Source: Bacteroidota bacterium (GTDB lineage Bacteria > Bacteroidota > Bacteroidia > 2-12-FULL-35-15). Taken from it: a stretch of 64,000 bases of DNA. The notes beneath the pieces are model-generated. The model was not told the origin of the DNA, did not search any database, and saw only the letters and a list, made by a program, of their open reading frames with translations. This document shows, in pieces, positions 15,262 through 61,989 of this stretch. The position numbers and the translations under genes are program-made. Where the stretch lies: assembly GCA_023251835.1 (NCBI GenBank), contig JAHEXZ010000020.1, positions 3,694 to 67,693 on the forward strand. Reading direction: 5' to 3'. Within the stretch, counting starts at the first letter, position 1; every line of letters starts with the position of its first letter.

Positions 15262-15438
15262 AGTATAGTTTTCAAAATAACTTCCTCAATCCACGCACAT
15301 ATTTCGACAAGCTCAATATGACTCGCGCGCGGTCAGTCAGAGCTAGTTTACCCTGAGCGAAGTCGAAGGGAAGACTGTGGGTAGCAATTTGAAAACGAAT
15401 CATATTTCTTTTGTTGAAGTTATTCTGAAAACTTTACT
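15262..15438. mobile_element. MITE-like 177-bp inverted-repeat element, copy A
   Basis: Same length as 21506-21682 with 6 mismatches and no indels. Imperfect terminal inverted repeats (the copy-A ends differ from the 23-nt agtaaagttttcaaaataacttc TIR of copy B at one position each). No coding capacity. Confidence 0.7.
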
Positions 15439-21510: not shown

Positions 21511-21682
21511 AGTTTTCAAAATAACTTCCTCAATCCACGCACATGTTTCGACAAGCTCAATATGACTCGCGCGCGGTCAGTCAGAGCTAGTTTACCCTGA
21601 GCGAAGTCGAAGGGAAGACTATGGGTGGCAATTTGAAAATGAATCATATTTCTTTTGTTGAAGTTATTTTGAAAACTTTACT
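21506..21682. mobile_element. MITE-like 177-bp inverted-repeat element, copy B
   Basis: 23-nt perfect terminal inverted repeat agtaaagttttcaaaataacttc at both ends. About 97% identical to 15262-15438. Its first 5 nt overlap the rlmN stop codon (21508-21510). Confidence 0.75.
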
Positions 21683-44181: not shown

Positions 44182-46272
44182 TTATTTAATTTTTACACCC
44201 ACTACAAGAATATCGTCTATCTGTACGGTATTTCCCTTCCATTCCTCATGTGCTTTAATTATTATATTTCCTTGCTCCTCCATATTCAGTTCCTGGCTAC
44301 TAAGTAGCAGCTCTTGAAATTTGCCAAGACTAAACTTTTTTCTTTTTTTACCACCAAATTGATCCGGGTATCCGTCAGTAAAAAGATAAATGCTCATATT
44401 GGGAGTTATTGGAAAAGTATGATTGGTGTAGTTAACTTTAAGTGAGCCTGTTGGTTTTATCAAAAATTGTCTTCCACCGATTGTATAAATATCTGCCTTT
44501 ATTATTGTAAGCTGGTTATTAGCTATTATATATAATGGCTGCTGTGCACCAGAATACTCTATTCGGTTATTCTCATAATCAATACAGCAGATGGATATAT
44601 CCATTCCATCATCTGATATTGGTTTTTCTTTATTCTGGTTTAAAATGTCATATATTCCATTATTCAAATGGTTTAGTATTTCGGATGGAGTTGTAATATG
44701 CTTTTGTTTTATAATCTGATTTAAAAGCGTGTTGCCTATTATACTCATAAATGCTCCGGGTACACCATGTCCTGTACAATCAGTAACGACCAATATAATT
44801 TTGCCATTTATTTTTGAACACCAGTAAAAATCGCCACTTACAATGTCTTTAGGCTGATAATAAGTAAAAGAATCGGGCAAAAGTTTTTGTACCTCCTGTT
44901 CTTCAATAACAATCTTTTGTTGCATCAGTCTTGCATAAACAAGGCTGTTTACAATTTTTTCCTGTTGTTTTTCAATAAGTATATTTTTCTGCAGCAAATC
45001 TTTATTTGTAATATCCAACTGTATATTTAATTTTCTTTTGACAGTAAAACGGTTAAACAATATAAAGATTAAAAGTAAGACCAGAATTAACCCTCCAATG
45101 AAACCATATAAAACAAATTTTTGTCTGTCCATTTCACTCTGTTGGAGTGCTTTGTCTTTCTTTAATAATTCTATATCTTTTTCTTTTTTTTCGGTTTCAT
45201 ATCTTGTATTTAGTTCTGTTATATGGTTATTTGCTTTTTCACTAAGCAATGAATCTTTAAGTTTCCGGAATAGTTTATGGTATTCTAACGCCTGTTGATA
45301 GTTCCCTCTTTTTTTTAATGCATCTGAGAGCAGGTATGCTCCACTTTTTAAGGCTTCTAACTCTTTTGTTTTTTCAGCCGTTTTAACTCCATGAGTGAGA
45401 AAACCGATAGCTTCATCGAGTCGGTTTTGTATAAGACGCATTTCTCCTATTGAAATTAATACACTGGCAGATCTGGCAGATTCCAGATCTTTTCCAAATG
45501 GTCTTTCATTAAAACATTTTTCGGCTGCTGTAAAGTATTCTTGTTTGCCGGTTTGTTTTGCCCAATCAAGATATATTTCTCCAAGACTTATCTGTGCAAG
45601 ATCCACACCATTAGGGTCTTTGCGGGCAGCATATTCAATTCGTGCTTCTTTAAGATAGTTAATAGCTTTTTGATACTGTTTTAGTCCAAGATAGGCAGTA
45701 TGGATATTGAGTAAAGAGTGGGTTATATTCTCCTTATCCTTTTTACGCAGCTCTAAAGCGTGAAGATGGTATTCAAGCGCCTTTCCATAATCAGATTTTT
45801 TTCCGGAAAGTTCGGCCATGCGAGAATACACATTACCGATATTGTTCAGGCTGTTAGCGATATTTGTTCGGTCGTTAATTTCTTCGGCTACTTTTAAGGA
45901 TGCCAAATAATATTCAATAGCTTTCTCATACAACCATTTATGATAATATATATTTCCAATTTTCCTCAATGAAACAGAAATAAATATTTTTTTATTTGTT
46001 TTATTGGCCGCCTCTGCTGCCTGTAATGCATATTGCAATGCATTTTCATAGTCAAACAGTGAGTGCGAATATAGGTCGGATATGGTAAATAAGATTTTTA
46101 CTTTTACAGTGTCCTTACTATTATAATCATTTGTGGGAAGGGATTTTAAAGCATGGAGTAGAGAATCGATGGTTTTGAGTGAAGATGTTTGTGCTGCTTG
46201 TTGAGCATATACAACATGGCTGCCAAGTATTATAAAGAGATAAGCGACAAATTTTTTTTTCATCTTTCCCAT
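44182..46272 (-). CDS. Sensor phosphatase paralog 3: signal peptide + TPR + TM + PP2C/SpoIIE
   Basis: 696 aa with the same architecture (TDCTGHGVPGAFMSIIGNTLLNQIIKQK, FTDGYPDQFGG, DDILVVGVKI). Only 19 nt upstream of paralog 2, so likely co-transcribed. Confidence 0.85.
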   Translation of the reverse strand: MGKMKKKFVAYLFIILGSHVVYAQQAAQTSSLKTIDSLLHALKSLPTNDYNSKDTVKVKILFTISDLYSHSLFDYENALQYALQAAEAANKTNKKIFISVSLRKIGNIYYHKWLYEKAIEYYLASLKVAEEINDRTNIANSLNNIGNVYSRMAELSGKKSDYGKALEYHLHALELRKKDKENITHSLLNIHTAYLGLKQYQKAINYLKEARIEYAARKDPNGVDLAQISLGEIYLDWAKQTGKQEYFTAAEKCFNERPFGKDLESARSASVLISIGEMRLIQNRLDEAIGFLTHGVKTAEKTKELEALKSGAYLLSDALKKRGNYQQALEYHKLFRKLKDSLLSEKANNHITELNTRYETEKKEKDIELLKKDKALQQSEMDRQKFVLYGFIGGLILVLLLIFILFNRFTVKRKLNIQLDITNKDLLQKNILIEKQQEKIVNSLVYARLMQQKIVIEEQEVQKLLPDSFTYYQPKDIVSGDFYWCSKINGKIILVVTDCTGHGVPGAFMSIIGNTLLNQIIKQKHITTPSEILNHLNNGIYDILNQNKEKPISDDGMDISICCIDYENNRIEYSGAQQPLYIIANNQLTIIKADIYTIGGRQFLIKPTGSLKVNYTNHTFPITPNMSIYLFTDGYPDQFGGKKRKKFSLGKFQELLLSSQELNMEEQGNIIIKAHEEWKGNTVQIDDILVVGVKIK

Positions 46273-48964: not shown

Positions 48965-49229
48965 GTCATCAGTTATATAAGATATACTGAGCGATAACCA
49001 ATAGTTGACAGCCCAACAAACACTTTTAATTTTTTTGTAGAAAGATATACGCACATTACCACAATACCCCTATCTTTGATATTCGAAATCACCTGACTAC
49101 TTCAGGTATCTCTGTTTAAATTTAAAATATTTACAAAAAATTAAACTTTACAACTATGGCATTTGACATTGTATTGTTTAAGAATACGTTGTCGAATATC
49201 ATTACATCGTAGTAATTAATGCAAACGTG

Positions 49230-49691
49230 TTATTTATTTGGAAAAAATGTAAGAGGATTCACAATTGGAATCATTGCTCCTTCAATAGGAGTGCCCTGAG
49301 ATTTATCTATTAAAAAACCTCTGGTAGTGGAGATTAGAACACCAATAAAATTTGCAAAAACTATATTAGGAATTTTGCCCTCTGATTGTTTTATAATTTC
49401 AGTGAGATTAAAAACAATAAAAATACCATGCGAATTAATATAACCGACTTTATTTTTTTTTTCTAAATCCGAAAACATGTTAATGTTCAAATTTACATTA
49501 ATTTCATTTTTAGGCATGTTAACGCCCATGTTTACATTAAACTCATATTGGAAATGTTCTACATTAATTTTTGAATCTGTTATAACAGATTTTTCCAATT
49601 GAAAGTCTGAAAATTTAATTTCACCTATCTTGGTTTGAATATTTAATTCTTTTATTGGTTCAATTGGCATATCAGTTGGCTTGACATTCAT
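49230..49691 (-). CDS. SecB-like chaperone candidate (third gene of a toxin-antitoxin-chaperone-like operon)
   Basis: 153 aa, the same size as SecB. VGYINSHGIFIVFNLTE...IPNIVFANFIGVLISTTRGFL...AMIPIVNPLTFF parallels E. coli SecB FLCEVQQAGIFSIAGIE...[20 protein letters not shown]...LAPVNFDALF, recalled from memory. Overlaps the upstream gene by 20 nt (alternative ATG at 49670). Confidence 0.45.
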   Translation of the reverse strand: MNVKPTDMPIEPIKELNIQTKIGEIKFSDFQLEKSVITDSKINVEHFQYEFNVNMGVNMPKNEINVNLNINMFSDLEKKNKVGYINSHGIFIVFNLTEIIKQSEGKIPNIVFANFIGVLISTTRGFLIDKSQGTPIEGAMIPIVNPLTFFPNK

Positions 49692-50124
49692 TTAACTTAA
49701 CAGCAGTATCTTGTGCAACACTTACTGAAACTATCTCAACTTCAAATGTCTTTCCTTTTTTGACATCTGTATATCTAAACTTGTTCGTAATTGGATAAAC
49801 TAAAATTGATTGTTCCCCTTCTTCATGTTTAAGAAAAGTAATGTAAATTTCTTGTTTGGCTTCATCTGCTGTATAAATTAATGGTACACCCAGTACGGCT
49901 TCAATTTTACCAATGGTTTTAAATGTAAAATTATGAGTGCCTCTTAACCATTTACTGATTTCAGATTCCTTCTTACCAAGCTTATCAGCAAGGTCTTTTT
50001 GAGTGATTCCACCTTTGTCAAGTATGTCAGTAATCAGCGATGCAATAGCCATTGACCTCCGCACCATACTTTTAATTTCAGGTGATACCGTTTTGGCTCT
50101 TTCTCTAATGCTGTTTTTCTTCAT
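49672..50124 (-). CDS. XRE-family helix-turn-helix protein (antitoxin candidate) with about 70-aa C-terminal extension
   Basis: 150 aa. ITQKDLADKLGKKESEISKWLRGTHNFTFKTIGKIEAVLG is a canonical XRE HTH. Confidence 0.8.
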   Translation of the reverse strand: MKKNSIRERAKTVSPEIKSMVRRSMAIASLITDILDKGGITQKDLADKLGKKESEISKWLRGTHNFTFKTIGKIEAVLGVPLIYTADEAKQEIYITFLKHEEGEQSILVYPITNKFRYTDVKKGKTFEVEIVSVSVAQDTAVKLNECQAN

Positions 50125-50136
50125 AATTTGTTTGTT

Positions 50137-50607
50137 TTATTCAGTTTCAATTGTAAATTCAAGATTCCCGAACAACTCACAATTGTATATATTTACTCCT
50201 TCGTCAAGCCTGCTTTGTAAATGCCTTACTACTTGATTAAGTACATCCCCGATTGGTTTTAAAAGTGGATTATTTTGCCATGAACCATCTGTTTTTTTAT
50301 CTCCATTTCCGATAATACAAATGCAATCACTTATTCGCAAACTGAAATGACGGAGTTTACCTCCGTCCAAAGGTAAAGCTTGTAATTTGCCTCCTTCTGG
50401 TCGGAAATATCTTTCCAATGCTCCTTTTTCAGAAATGATATTTAGCCATTCAATGATAATTTCAAAGTCTTTGTTGTATTCAGGAGTGCCATCAAATTTT
50501 TGACAAAATTTATCGTATTCGTTTTCCTGTTCATCAGTGAATCGCACTGTGTAGAAGGTAACGGCATCATATTTTTCAAATAATTCTATTATTATTCTGC
50601 GATTCAC
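50137..50607 (-). CDS. Toxin candidate (RelE/HigB-like conserved Bacteroidota family)
   Basis: 156 aa. ALERYFRPEGGKLQALPLDGGKLRHFSLRISDCICIIGNGDKKT matches a family I recall upstream of XRE genes (..ALERYFRPEG..LRLYCLRLSD.ILILGNGG.K). 12 nt upstream of the HTH gene. Confidence 0.4.
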   Translation of the reverse strand: MNRRIIIELFEKYDAVTFYTVRFTDEQENEYDKFCQKFDGTPEYNKDFEIIIEWLNIISEKGALERYFRPEGGKLQALPLDGGKLRHFSLRISDCICIIGNGDKKTDGSWQNNPLLKPIGDVLNQVVRHLQSRLDEGVNIYNCELFGNLEFTIETE

Positions 50608-50642
50608 TTATAAGTTAAGTTTCAAAATTAGTCAAATTTTAA

Positions 50643-51157
50643 TCAAATCCAAATACTTTTTGTCAAGGACTCGGTAAAAATAGCTAAATAAGCATAAATA
50701 ATAGTTGAAATTGGTGTATTATTTTCCCACGATTCAATATATATCATGGAAAGATTGTTATCAAATAGAAGGTTAAGTGTTCTGTTATTTTTAGTCGTTA
50801 TTATTAAAGAAGCCGAATGAGAATGGCTATATTTTTTATTGACTTTTTCGCCACTTGAGGAAAACAGTTTTACAGGTACAGTAGGAGCATTGGACGCAAG
50901 TTTTTTCAAATTAGTTTTCAGAAAATTGCAATGGTCTTTACCAACTTTTTAAAAAAATCCGTCAAAATATGATTTTGCAAGATAAATAACGGCTCCTGTT
51001 GGAATTAACCATTCATCGAAGCAAACATTTCAGGTTCCCTTGCTTCCACTTGAACGTTTAAACCGCTTGTTTCCAATTCCTTTTTAATTTCTTCCAACCA
51101 ATGTCAGGAAATTGCTCCAAATAAGAGATACATACATGTGCTTCTTTATTATTCATT
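50643..51157 (-). pseudogene. Disrupted gene of unknown function (two frameshifts plus one in-frame stop)
   Basis: My minus-strand translation gives three collinear pieces: MNNKEAHVCISYLEQFPD / LEEIKKELETSGLNVQVEAREPEMFASMN / EWLIPTGAVIYLAKSYFDGFF*KVGKDHCNFLKTNLKKLASNAP...SIWI. Only the last 88 codons are in the ORF track. Confidence 0.35.
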
Positions 51158-51367
51158 GTAGATGTTTTATGTGTAAAAAAATAATTTTCCAGCGAAAAAC
51201 TCCTCCTGATCCCATTCTAATTTTGTAATTTTGAGCCTCGAAAATGAGAATAAAAAGAGTGATGGATTTTACGGATAAAATAATTCGCCAGAAATTCGCC
51301 ACAAAAACACTAAAAAAGCCCATTTTTGAAAAACTAACTAATTAATAACCAATTAAATAATATATAT

Positions 51368-53635
51368 ATGGCATTTGACATTGAAATGATTCAGGAGCTT
51401 TATGATAAATTACCTGGGAAGGTAGAAGCTGCACGTAAATTATTGAACCGTCCGTTAACGCTAACAGAAAAAATTTTATATGCTCATCTTTCGGAGAAGC
51501 TACCTGTTAAACCTTTTGAGCGTCAGAAATCATATGTTGACTTTAATCCTGATCGTGTTGCAATGCAGGATGCAACAGCACAAATGGCTTTGCTGCAATT
51601 TATGCAGGCAGGCAGGCCTAAAGTGGCTGTGCCTTCCACTGTTCATTGCGACCATCTCATCCAGGCAAAAACAGGGGCAGCTGAGGATTTAATCGTAGCT
51701 CTTGATAAAAATAAAGAAGTGTATGATTTTCTTGCTTCCGTTTCCAACAAATATGGAATTGGCTTCTGGAAACCGGGAGCAGGTATTATACACCAGGTAT
51801 TATTGGAAAACTATGCTTTTCCGGGAGGTATGATGATTGGTACCGACTCTCATACTGTAAATGCTGGTGGTCTTGGAATGATTGCTATTGGCGTTGGAGG
51901 AGCAGATGCTTGTGATGTGATGGCAGGTTTGCCATGGGAATTAAAATTTCCTAAATTGATTGGAGTAAAGTTAACTGGTAAATTAAATGGCTGGACTTCG
52001 GCAAAAGATATTATCCTGAAAGTTGCTGGTATACTCACCGTAAAAGGCGGAACAAATGCTATTCTTGAATATTTCGGTACTGGGGCTGATTCATTGTCAT
52101 GTACTGGTAAAGGCACCATTTGTAATATGGGTGCAGAAATTGGTGCAACTACTTCCGTATTCTGTTATGACTCAAAAATGGCAGATTATCTTAAAGGAAC
52201 AAGCAGAGCCGATATAGCTGCTGCTGCTGACAAAGTTGCAGTTCACTTACGTGGCGATAAAGAAGTGTATGAATCTCCTGCTGCCTACTTTGATGAAGTA
52301 ATTGAAATCAACCTCTCGGAATTAGAACCTCATATCAATGGGCCATTTACCCCGGATCTGGCATGGCCACTTTCTAAGTTTGCTCAAGCTATAAAAGAAA
52401 ACGGATGGCCAGCTAAATTGGACGTAGGTTTAATTGGCTCCTGCACCAACTCTTCTTATGAAGATATTACCAGGGCAGCGTCCGTTGCCAAACAGGCTGT
52501 GGATTCCGGAATTAAAGCCGTTTCAGAATATACAATTACTCCAGGTTCGGAGTTGGTACGTTATACAGTAGAACGTGATGGTTACCTGAGCACATTTGAA
52601 AAAATGGGAGGTGTTGTACTGGCTAATGCATGTGGACCATGTATAGGGCAATGGGCACGCCATACCAATGATCCTAACAAAAAAAATTCTATTATCACTT
52701 CATTTAACAGGAACTTTGCAAAACGTAATGATGGCAATCCAAATACACATGCATTTGTGGCCTCTCCTGAAATAGTTACTGCTCTTGCTATTGCAGGCGA
52801 CCTCACCTTTAACCCTGTAACAGATTATCTTACCGGCCCTAAAGGGGAAAAGATAAAGCTACAGGAGCCAAAAGGTATTGAGCTGCCTGTAAAAGGTTTT
52901 GCCGTGGAGGATGCCGGCTATCAGGCTCCTGCAAAAGATGGCAGTACTGTAAACATTATTGTATCTCCTGCTTCAGACCGTCTGCAGCTATTAGACCCTT
53001 TTGCTGCCTGGGAAGGAATTGATTTAAAAAATTTAAGGCTGCTCATTAAAGCAAAAGGTAAATGCACTACCGATCACATTTCGATGGCAGGGCCATGGTT
53101 GAAGTATCGCGGCCACTTGGACAATATCTCTAACAACATGTTAATCGGTGCGGTGAATTATTTCAATGATAAAACCGACCATGTTAAAAATCAACTAACT
53201 GGTGAATATGCTTCTGTCCCTGCAGTACAACGTACGTATAAAGCTAAAAGTATTGGTTCAATAGTGGTAGGTGATGAAAATTATGGCGAAGGTTCATCAC
53301 GTGAACATGCTGCTATGGAGCCTCGTTTTCTTGGCGTACGCGCTGTATTGGTAAAATCATTTGCCCGTATTCATGAAACAAATCTGAAAAAACAGGGAAT
53401 GTTGGCATTAACCTTTGCTTATAAGGTTGACTATGATAAAGTTCAGGAAGATGATGTAATTGATATTATAGGCTTAACCTCATTTACTCCGAATGTTCCG
53501 TTAACAATAGTATTGCAACATGCTAACGGAAGCAAAGATGAAATCAAAGTAAATCATACTTACAATGAGCAACAAATTGAGTGGTTCAAAGCGGGAGGAG
53601 CCTTGAATATTATAAGAGCAAATGTGAAAGCGTAA
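51368..53635 (+). CDS. acnA: Aconitate hydratase (about 755-aa mitochondrial-type)
   Basis: MAFDIEMI... N-terminus typical of Bacteroidota aconitases. Motifs [35 protein letters not shown] and [13 protein letters not shown]. Confidence 0.95.
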
Positions 53636-53649
53636 GCCGAACCAAAATA

Positions 53650-53847
53650 ATGTATAAACTAAACAAAAACGTATTTAAAGCGCATTCTGCTGAACAGGCA
53701 GTAGATCATGCTTCTTATTATAGAAAATTAACGTGGCAGGAGCGTTTAAAAATTACTATATATTTAAATAGTATTGCTTTTCGTTTAGTTGGTAAACCTG
53801 AACCCAGGCTGGACAGAACCGCCTTTAGTGTCAGGGCAAGAGATTAG
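53650..53847 (+). CDS. Small conserved protein paired with the downstream nucleotidyltransferase
   Basis: 65 aa from ATG 53650 (MYKLNKNVFKAHSAEQAV...). The track ORF from 53581 overlaps the aconitase 3' end. Its stop TAG abuts the next ATG (53848). Confidence 0.5.
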   Translation: MYKLNKNVFKAHSAEQAVDHASYYRKLTWQERLKITIYLNSIAFRLVGKPEPRLDRTAFSVRARD

Positions 53848-54312
53848 ATGGGAAATATATTTTACCAGGATTTCAGGGACTTTCTGCAACTATTAAATGA
53901 TAATCAGGTTGATTATGTTTTAATAGGCGGTTATTCTGTTATATTCCATGGATATTCCCGGACAACTGGCGATATGGATATCTGGGTAAAAAGAGATACC
54001 GAGAATTATCAAAAGTTAAGAAAAACGTTCTTTCAATTTGGCATGGCGCTGTTTGATATGACCGAAGATAATTTTCTGAATCATCCTATCTGGGATGTTT
54101 TCTCTTTTGGTATTCCTCCTGTATGTATTGATATAATGGTTAAAGTAAAAGGTTTATCCTTTGAATCATGTTATCAGGAAGCTGAATTTTTTGATGATGA
54201 TGGTCTGAAAATAAGGGTAATAAGCTATAATCACCTGATCCGGGCAAAAGAAGAATCAAACCGGCCTAAAGATATTGATGATATTACTAACCTGGAAAAT
54301 AAAAAAAATTAA
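53848..54312 (+). CDS. Minimal nucleotidyltransferase-fold protein
   Basis: 154 aa. VDYVLIGGYSVIFHGYSRTTGDMDIWV is the G-G...G.x.R.T.D.D NTase signature, followed by RPKDIDDI. Confidence 0.65.
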   Translation: MGNIFYQDFRDFLQLLNDNQVDYVLIGGYSVIFHGYSRTTGDMDIWVKRDTENYQKLRKTFFQFGMALFDMTEDNFLNHPIWDVFSFGIPPVCIDIMVKVKGLSFESCYQEAEFFDDDGLKIRVISYNHLIRAKEESNRPKDIDDITNLENKKN

Positions 54313-61968: not shown

Positions 61969-61989
61969 ACCCTGAGCGAAGTCGAAGGG
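61969..61989. repeat. 21-nt core of the MITE family (accctgagcgaagtcgaaggg), isolated copy
   Basis: Exact match to the core of both 177-bp copies (15351-15371 in copy A). Lies in the intergenic region between the MFS gene and lutA-like gene. Confidence 0.6.

Follow-up and report, generated by a model that had tools for sequence, protein, structure and literature searches.

Organization of the locus

We analyzed a 64,000-nt stretch of DNA from a Bacteroidota bacterium (assembly GCA_023251835.1, contig JAHEXZ010000020.1, positions 3,694 to 67,693), hereafter called the window, and focused on three co-oriented genes that encode the proteins P1, P2, and P3. These genes probably form a highly diverged HigBAC-type toxin-antitoxin-chaperone (TAC) module, an interpretation for which the evidence as a whole is computational. 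A first-pass annotation of the window had reported three coupled genes at 49230-50607, and our open reading frame (ORF) listing gave exactly the same coordinates, gap, and overlap (Table 1): a gap of 12 nt (50125-50136) lies between P1 and P2, and P3 shares 20 nt (49672-49691) with P2. The peptide strings quoted in that annotation (ALERYFRPEG, LRHFSLRISDCICIIGNGDKK, HGIFIVFNL, PNIVFANF...TTRG, and IPIVNPLTFF) were all found in the translations.

The GTG start codon of P1 is supported because homologues begin at the same position and the surrounding DNA is conserved. An alternative start of P3, at Met8, lies 1 nt past the P2 stop codon and is used by some homologues. The G+C content of the TAC region is 29-33%, compared with ~42% in the adjoining aconitase gene. 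The gene order of toxin, antitoxin, and SecB-like protein is the same in the window and in the full relatives (loci L009-12, L016-18, and L030-34).

Table 1. Coordinates of the genes, domains, regulatory sites, and direct repeats at the locus
Feature	Position	Strand	Description
Gene 1 (P1)	50137-50607	minus	156 aa, GTG start; putative toxin with a remote Gp49/HigB-type RelE fold and a C-terminal extension
Gene 2 (P2)	49672-50124	minus	150 aa; putative antitoxin with an XRE-type helix-turn-helix (HTH) core and a tail
P2 residues 1-79	49888-50124	minus	N-terminal helix and XRE-type HTH core, putative antitoxin/repressor part
P2 residues 80-150	49672-49887	minus	C-terminal extension, putative chaperone-addiction (ChAD) element
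Gene 3 (P3)	49230-49691	minus	153 aa; SecB-like, putative dedicated antitoxin chaperone
Putative operator	50603-50621	minus	19-nt AACTTAACTTATAAGTGAA, spans the GTG start (50605-50607)
Putative Bacteroidota-type promoter	50623-50653	minus	TTTG (50650-50653), 19 nt, TAATTTTG (50623-50630)
Left copy of the direct repeat	49155-49171	plus	17-nt TATGGCATTTGACATTG, just beyond the P3 stop codon
Right copy of the direct repeat	51367-51383	plus	17-nt TATGGCATTTGACATTG, includes the start codon (ATG) and first codons of aconitase (gene at 51368-53635)

The third protein resembles SecB

The AlphaFold model of P3, with a predicted local distance difference test score (pLDDT) of 73, has four long strands, after which come two helices, one short and one long. 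A Foldseek comparison of this model with the PDB returned only SecB (1qyn, 1fx3, 1ozb, and 5jtl) or Rv1957 (5mtw, the TAC chaperone of Mycobacterium tuberculosis with a ChAD peptide) among the top 19 matches, at E-values from 6e-4 to 2e-2, TM-scores of 0.45-0.60, probabilities of ~1, and a root-mean-square deviation (rmsd) of ~5 A; the matches that followed were unrelated and much weaker. Identity in the structural alignments of P3 to SecB was 10-16%.

Profile comparisons gave the same family. Profile A3, built from 141 P3-family sequences, matched three PDB sequences at E<=10, all of which were SecB (E 0.33-1.4), and Pfam SecB was the commonest family match among the P3 relatives (5/141 at E<=0.1, best 2.4e-4). 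By sequence, P3 itself is not a member of the Pfam SecB family (PF02556). Using hhalign, residues 10-151 of P3 were aligned colinearly with residues 3-139 of the 155-aa Escherichia coli SecB; since P3 stops 2 residues later, its end falls close to residue 139 of SecB, and it is predicted to lack the C-terminal helix and acidic tail. The remote profile similarity includes a GIF...PN(I/L) stretch. The hhalign score of the P3 profile against an alignment of 117 SecB sequences was 27.1, a value reached by none of the 100 block-shuffled controls (11.7 +/- 1.9, maximum 18.2), and the reversed alignment scored 9.9. We added these controls because the SecB profile is narrow: the search with E. coli SecB yielded enterobacterial orthologues only (>=83% identity), with an effective sequence number (Neff) of only 1.4, which accounts for the low hhalign probability for SecB. 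Single-sequence searches of the PDB with P3 and P1 gave nothing or irrelevant matches, and a BLASTP comparison of P3 with E. coli SecB gave one 30-residue match (E 0.31).

Close homologues of P3 are rare (12 among 5.8 billion proteins), and a profile search at E<=1e-3 assigned 988 of 1.84 billion cluster representatives to the family. The most conserved motif is the family-specific ISTTRG, which contains the invariant Arg124. The first-pass annotation had paired TTRG of P3 with VSRG of SecB; however, our profile alignment places SecB VSRGT opposite KSQGT of P3, and ISTTRG therefore lies in a stretch without a SecB counterpart. The string AGIFSIAGI that had been quoted for SecB also needs correction, as the PDB sequences of E. 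coli SecB have GGIFSIAGI. The proposal that P3 is SecB-like, for which a structure or profile search had been named as a possible refutation, was borne out by Foldseek, the profile search, Pfam, and hhalign, all of which gave SecB. On the basis of its predicted fold and profile similarity, P3 is a remote SecB-superfamily protein that is missed by the curated models.

The antitoxin tail and the third gene occur together

Residues 34-82 of P2 match the Pfam HTH_3 domain (E 1.1e-12), and P2 gave weak matches to HigA, HipB, and MqsA-type antitoxin models. A long extension follows the domain, in agreement with the earlier description of P2 as an XRE-HTH protein with a long C-terminal tail. The tail of 71 aa is rich in beta-branched and aromatic residues, including seven aromatics (Y84, Y94, F97, Y110, F116, Y118, and F127). 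Across loci, the tails are 58-102 aa long and carry three to seven or more aromatics, and no shared aromatic motif could be defined. The tail evolves fastest: mean identity across loci is 23% for the tail, 31% for P3, 37% for P1, and 53% for the HTH core.

To compare loci, the neighborhoods of the relatives were taken from exact-protein look-ups; genome and metagenome locus scans with alignment A1 gave one locus each. The three-gene loci comprise the window, L009-11, L012 (a Bacteroidia metagenome-assembled genome), L016, L017, L018/19, L030-32, L033, and L034, and L014/15 is a partial locus that ends before the first gene. Antitoxins of the three-gene loci are without exception 127-184 aa long, and a P3-family gene comes next. 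In the two-gene loci L001-L008, a clade of P1 relatives at 38-42% identity, the antitoxin is 86-88 aa long, ends 6-8 residues past the HTH core, and is not accompanied by the third gene; the P2 core aligns with these short antitoxins. The tail and the third gene are thus gained or lost together, which, as far as sequences can tell, is a chaperone-addiction pattern. ChADs are C-terminal extensions of TAC antitoxins that differ in length and sequence, are missing from homologues in two-component systems, and are recognized through aromatic residues (PMC5105189, PMC6377645, bioRxiv 10.1101/2024.02.24.581848).

Four of the seven long tails, those of the window (49675-49692), L010, L014, and L017, have (E/D)C(Q/F)xN at the C-terminus, and that of L016 ends in -EAA. 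These ends could represent a degron or a chaperone-contact site. A 397/455-aa gene upstream of the two-gene relatives begins with a lipoprotein signal and was judged to be unrelated.

The first protein is remotely similar to Gp49/HigB toxins

The AlphaFold model of P1 (pLDDT 83) has a RelE-type core made up of the strands E17-23, E77-81, E85-91, and E96-104 and the helices H30-38 and H42-58. An N-terminal strand and, at the C-terminus, a helix and a small sheet lie outside the minimal RelE core. The best PDB matches in Foldseek were five chains of Streptococcus pneumoniae HigB (6af4/6af3; E 0.044, probability 0.96, TM-score 0.59), with HigB2, YafQ, ParE, and BrnT further down the list. P1 falls under the thresholds of all curated models. 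Among the 19 members of the P1 family that we scanned, 11 had Pfam Gp49 (PF05973) as a sub-threshold match, making it the commonest; in the best relative, P0020, the match spans positions 10-82 of the 90-position profile and reaches 18.8 bits, short of the cut-off of 23.9. The Gp49 family of Pfam holds both M. tuberculosis HigB1 and the HigB of an E. coli TAC (PMC11980606, Table 1; PMC3581621).

The invariant residues of P1 include R86, R91, N101, and K105 in the predicted sheet, and these may be active-site residues. P1 is best described as a putative, diverged toxin of the Gp49/HigB type with a predicted RelE fold. The first-pass annotation had suggested that the module is built on a different, uncharacterized toxin family; the structural matches to 6af4/6af3 and the sub-threshold matches to PF05973 instead point to a remote Gp49/HigB relative, that is, to the same family as M. 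tuberculosis HigB1.

A conserved palindrome overlaps the start codon

The 19-nt block AACTTAACTTATAAGTGAA includes the near-palindrome TTAACTTA/TAAGTGAA and is invariant in six aligned upstream regions, where the proteins are only 30-50% identical. Exact matches to the putative operator were found at eight loci and additionally at L030, and there is only one copy in the window. The Bacteroides thetaiotaomicron plasmid described below carries the perfect 16-mer palindrome TTAACTTATAAGTTAA; the GTG start codon has its origin in the single base by which the clade of the window departs from the palindrome. The two-gene relatives have another palindrome (TTTACATATATGTAAA) and another recognition helix. 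The palindrome would thus be the operator of a P2 dimer, with a transcript that has little or no leader.

A TAnnTTTG box is located two bases upstream of the operator block. The promoter consensus of Bacteroides is TTTG-N19-21-TAnnTTTG, and the arrangement of TTTG and TAnnTTTG fits it. Most of the aligned loci retain the -7 box TAnnTTTG; in L017, it is TACCTTTA. A sigma-70 scan gave sites no more frequently than expected by chance.

A possible link to phages through the operator was considered and rejected. An 18-mer of the operator has eight exact matches in viral contigs, none of which encodes P1 or P3. In four related viral contigs (L020:1838-1855, L022:10078-10095, L026:590-607, and L027:855-872), the 18-mer precedes a terS-like gene where the packaging genes begin, with unrelated flanks and no TAC genes; in L020 and L022, it bridges a stop codon and the following start codon. 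Since the count is within the rough chance expectation for an AT-rich 18-mer, we attribute these matches to chance or coding constraint.

Relationship to PDC-M64, plasmid copies, and SecB-TPR variants

All three proteins matched the hidden Markov models (HMMs) of the PADLOC system PDC-M64: P1 matched PDLC04756 (E 3.6e-36), P2 matched PDLC04760 (E 4.3e-30), and P3 matched PDLC04763 (E 4.9e-11). PDC-M64 is one of 145 untested defense candidates and was derived from cassettes that lie within BREX, DISARM, or type I restriction-modification (RM) loci (Payne et al. 2024, bioRxiv 10.1101/2024.01.29.577857, supplementary file 8). Its cassettes are of a two-gene type (FAM_00144>>FAM_00055) and a three-gene type (FAM_00144>>FAM_01977>>FAM_00131), and no functional annotation was found in the paper text or supplements examined (bioRxiv 10.1101/2024.01.29.577857). 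Like PDC-M64, the family of the window locus has two- and three-gene cassettes that share the first family. Unlike the discovery loci, the window copy is located between a hydrolase-like gene and an aconitase gene rather than in a BREX, DISARM, or type I RM locus; such embedding was the criterion for discovery and is not needed for a PADLOC call.

The same three-gene module is present on a plasmid of B. thetaiotaomicron BFG-119 (L033; NZ_CP103284.1, 59688-61030) and, between two large helicase genes, on Hymenobacter swuensis pHsw1 (L034; NZ_CP007144.1, 228751-230251). The Prokaryotic Genome Annotation Pipeline labels the genes on both plasmids as hypothetical, HTH regulator, and hypothetical.

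Some P3-family proteins (P0095, P0120, P0133, and P0164) consist of a SecB-like N-terminal domain and 200-300 aa of TPR repeats. P0164 (L030:1509-2618; also in L031 and L032) is encoded by the third gene of a full operon with P1 and a long-tailed HTH protein; this operon has the same operator, and its antitoxin has a 102-aa aromatic-rich tail. At L028:2072-4476, the gene for P0120, a 444-aa SecB-like-TPR protein, is directly upstream of a gene encoding EAD11 and CHAT (a caspase-like protease), and HTH and P1 genes are absent nearby. This arrangement suggests that the SecB-like domain has been reused in another conflict system.

Comparison with known systems

Systems of this kind and the way they work have been described before, and the window locus probably adds a strongly diverged HigBAC-type TAC. 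TACs occur in several phyla with HigBA, MqsRA, HicAB, and CmdTA units (PMC3581621, PMC5105189, PMC9519451). The order of toxin, XRE-HTH antitoxin, and SecB-like protein is that of M. tuberculosis Rv1955-Rv1956-Rv1957 (HigB1-HigA1-SecB^TA) and E. coli NT1F31 HigBAC. As in the HigBAC TACs, the putative toxin appears to belong to the Gp49/HigB branch of RelE proteins and the third protein has a predicted SecB fold (PMC5105189, PMC6377645, bioRxiv 10.1101/2024.02.24.581848); the antitoxin extension is likewise variable, contains aromatics, and is absent from chaperone-less relatives. Unlike the HigBAC TACs, the window module has a toxin and a chaperone that are both below the Pfam/NCBIfam thresholds, its putative operator overlaps the start codon, and its host belongs to the Bacteroidota.

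P3 shares with the export SecB of E. coli and Haemophilus influenzae the four-stranded sheet and helices of its model and a remote profile similarity. However, it is shorter than SecB and Rv1957, appears from the profile alignment to lack the C-terminal helix and acidic tail, both of which serve export SecB in its interaction with SecA, and adds the ISTTRG motif; unlike the solitary housekeeping secB, its gene lies in a toxin-antitoxin (TA) operon. A few Pfam-recognizable SecBs exist in Bacteroidetes (PMC4361572).

Chaperone-less Gp49-Gp48/HigBA pairs, such as gp49-gp48 of phage N15 and S. pneumoniae HigBA (6af3/6af4), also have the toxin first and an XRE antitoxin, and the two-gene relatives L001-L008 resemble these type II pairs. 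The window locus differs from them in having a tail, a third gene, and the N-terminal strand and C-terminal helix and sheet of P1.

Proposed mechanism and alternative explanations

We propose that P1 is a toxin of the RelE fold, similar to Gp49/HigB, that most likely cleaves mRNA as a ribosome-dependent endonuclease, and that P2 would neutralize P1 and repress the operon, its dimeric XRE-HTH core binding the 16-bp palindrome (proposed target sequence, TTAACTTATAAGTGAA) over the transcription start region and the GTG codon. The 71-aa aromatic-rich tail would act as a chaperone-addiction element, such that P2 would be unstable unless P3, a minimal SecB-like holdase without the SecA-linked C-terminal helix and acidic tail, holds it. 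If P3 were titrated away, the tail would be free, P2 would be lost, and P1 would arrest translation. TACs are an established route of abortive infection; in E. coli HigBAC, an unfolded structural protein of the phage acts as the client that titrates the SecB-like chaperone, which serves as the phage sensor (bioRxiv 10.1101/2024.02.24.581848; PMC9519451). The module studied here may function in plasmid addiction or against phages. We give the anti-phage role an even chance, an estimate that draws on the analogy, on the way in which PDC-M64 was nominated (guilt by embedding), and on the copies that lie on plasmids or between helicase genes.

Several results weigh against this interpretation. The scan with the curated Pfam/NCBIfam library gave zero matches for P3, SecB included, and zero for P1, for which SecB, RelE/ParE, HigB, and Gp49 were all absent. 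The evidence for P1 is weaker than that for P3: the best Foldseek E-value of P1 is only 0.044, a Foldseek comparison of its model with BFVD gave no useful match, and Gp49 is below threshold in the relatives and absent for P1 of the window itself. The P3 model is of medium confidence, being based on a 12-sequence alignment with residues 134-153 at pLDDT <50, and at the sequence level, the E-values of the P3 profile to SecB are marginal (see above) and the hhalign probability is 23-37%. Binding of P3 to the P2 tail is suggested by analogy and co-occurrence. A tblastn search with P3 of the window against phage and plasmid collections found no relatives, although our HMM searches did find P3-family genes on two plasmids. 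Finally, the window operon is situated beside housekeeping genes, outside any defense island.

Some of these results could mean that the SecB resemblance is an artifact of a medium-confidence model and of a common small alpha/beta topology, P3 being unrelated to SecB. The pLDDT of 73 obtained from 12 sequences, the TM-scores of 0.45-0.60 with an rmsd of ~5 A, and the PDB sequence E-values of >0.1 would all be compatible with such an artifact. However, three independent lines (the top 19 structures, the three PDB sequence matches, and the commonest Pfam match) gave SecB only, the alignment of P3 and SecB is colinear over nearly the full length, the shuffled hhalign scores never came close, and P3 occupies the genomic position expected of a TAC chaperone; we consider an artifact very improbable. 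It is also quite unlikely that the cassette is not a TA system at all and that P1 is an inactive Gp49-like protein within a transcription-regulatory or other accessory module. In favor of such a module, PDC-M64 is an untested candidate, and P1 of the window has no above-threshold match to a toxin family and a Foldseek E-value of 0.044; on the other hand, the layout is that of classic HigBA/Gp49-Gp48 systems, with the toxin first, a coupled XRE antitoxin, and an autoregulatory palindrome (PMC3581621), invariant basic or polar residues (R86, R91, N101, and K105) lie in the predicted beta-sheet of P1, and the cassette moves among unrelated contexts and plasmids and is found embedded in defense loci.

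A further explanation accepts the SecB fold of P3 and assigns it another function, as a second neutralizing or regulatory subunit that binds the toxin directly or as an adaptor for another partner, the P2 tail being a folded toxin-binding or oligomerization domain. P3-like domains are used outside strict TA systems, as shown by the TPR fusions and by L028, where such a domain lies beside an EAD11-CHAT gene without an HTH or toxin gene, and the richness of the tail in beta-branched and aromatic residues is also compatible with a small beta domain. However, the tail is the fastest-evolving part (23% identity, 58-102 aa), which is unlike a folded interaction domain and like the ChADs (PMC5105189), and the tail and P3 come and go together, whereas P1 and the 86-88 aa HTH core remain in the two-gene relatives. 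We therefore regard this explanation as unlikely and favor a HigBAC-type TAC, which is the likely identity of the locus.

Under the TAC interpretation, HigBAC-type TACs extend to a Bacteroidota clade whose toxin and chaperone now carry the label hypothetical protein, and the PADLOC candidate PDC-M64 gains a possible mechanism. The link between PDC-M64 and TACs is new, as are the size of the unrecognized SecB-like clade, the operator over the start codon, the natural two- and three-gene pairs, and the SecB-TPR fusions in the same operon (L030-32) or beside EAD11-CHAT (L028). The two- and three-gene forms provide matched pairs for the gain or loss of chaperone addiction, and the B. thetaiotaomicron BFG-119 plasmid and H. 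swuensis pHsw1 are cultured, tractable sources of the module.

P3 belongs to a large SecB-like clade (~1000 clusters at 50% identity), and we tentatively raise the idea, itself rather doubtful, that this clade provides the conflict systems of Bacteroidota with a modular domain for sensing clients. The domain would guard the antitoxin tail in plain TACs and would elsewhere be fused to TPR or paired with an EAD11-CHAT protease. If this were true, SecB-type holdases would be a general sensor of phage proteins wired to different effectors, beyond the TA-linked cases already known.

The islet and its insertion site

The first-pass annotation had placed the operon in a small islet, and we found that the islet is indeed bounded by exact 17-nt direct repeats, which are separated by 2212 nt start-to-start (~0.08 expected per random window). 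The left repeat follows a terminator-like hairpin (49091-49107) of the upstream 474-aa gene. The repeats look like an att-type duplication created when a 2.2-kb element entered the aconitase gene at its 5' end. The insert has no integrase gene inside it, and an exact-protein look-up of the aconitase revealed no empty insertion site.

The nearest relatives, L009-11, are similar to the window in DNA sequence (79%) only over 49233-50689, which corresponds to the promoter and the three genes, and the flanks differ. The remainder of the insert is an AT-rich spacer of ~675 nt (50690-51366) that is unlike the flanks of related loci; there were zero Rfam matches on the islet and zero Pfam matches on the small ORFs of the spacer.

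Other features of the window

Immediately after the aconitase gene, at 53581-54312 on the plus strand, an 88-aa ORF with a GTG start abuts a gene for a 154-aa DUF6036/DUF2204 nucleotidyltransferase (E 3.5e-6). The two may constitute a second TA-like or defense pair.

A near-identical intergenic repeat of ~160-200 nt is present at 15267-15424 and 21511-21668, with the copies 6244 nt apart, and its core, CACCCTGAGCGAAGTCGAAGGG, occurs a third time at 61969-61989. This repeat looks like a repetitive extragenic palindromic (REP)- or miniature inverted-repeat transposable element (MITE)-like element. Between 39559 and 44392, several exact repeats of 19-26 nt occur at a spacing of ~2.3 kb upstream of and inside a TPR-SpoIIE phosphatase gene (44182-46272), and they may mark tandem paralogues.

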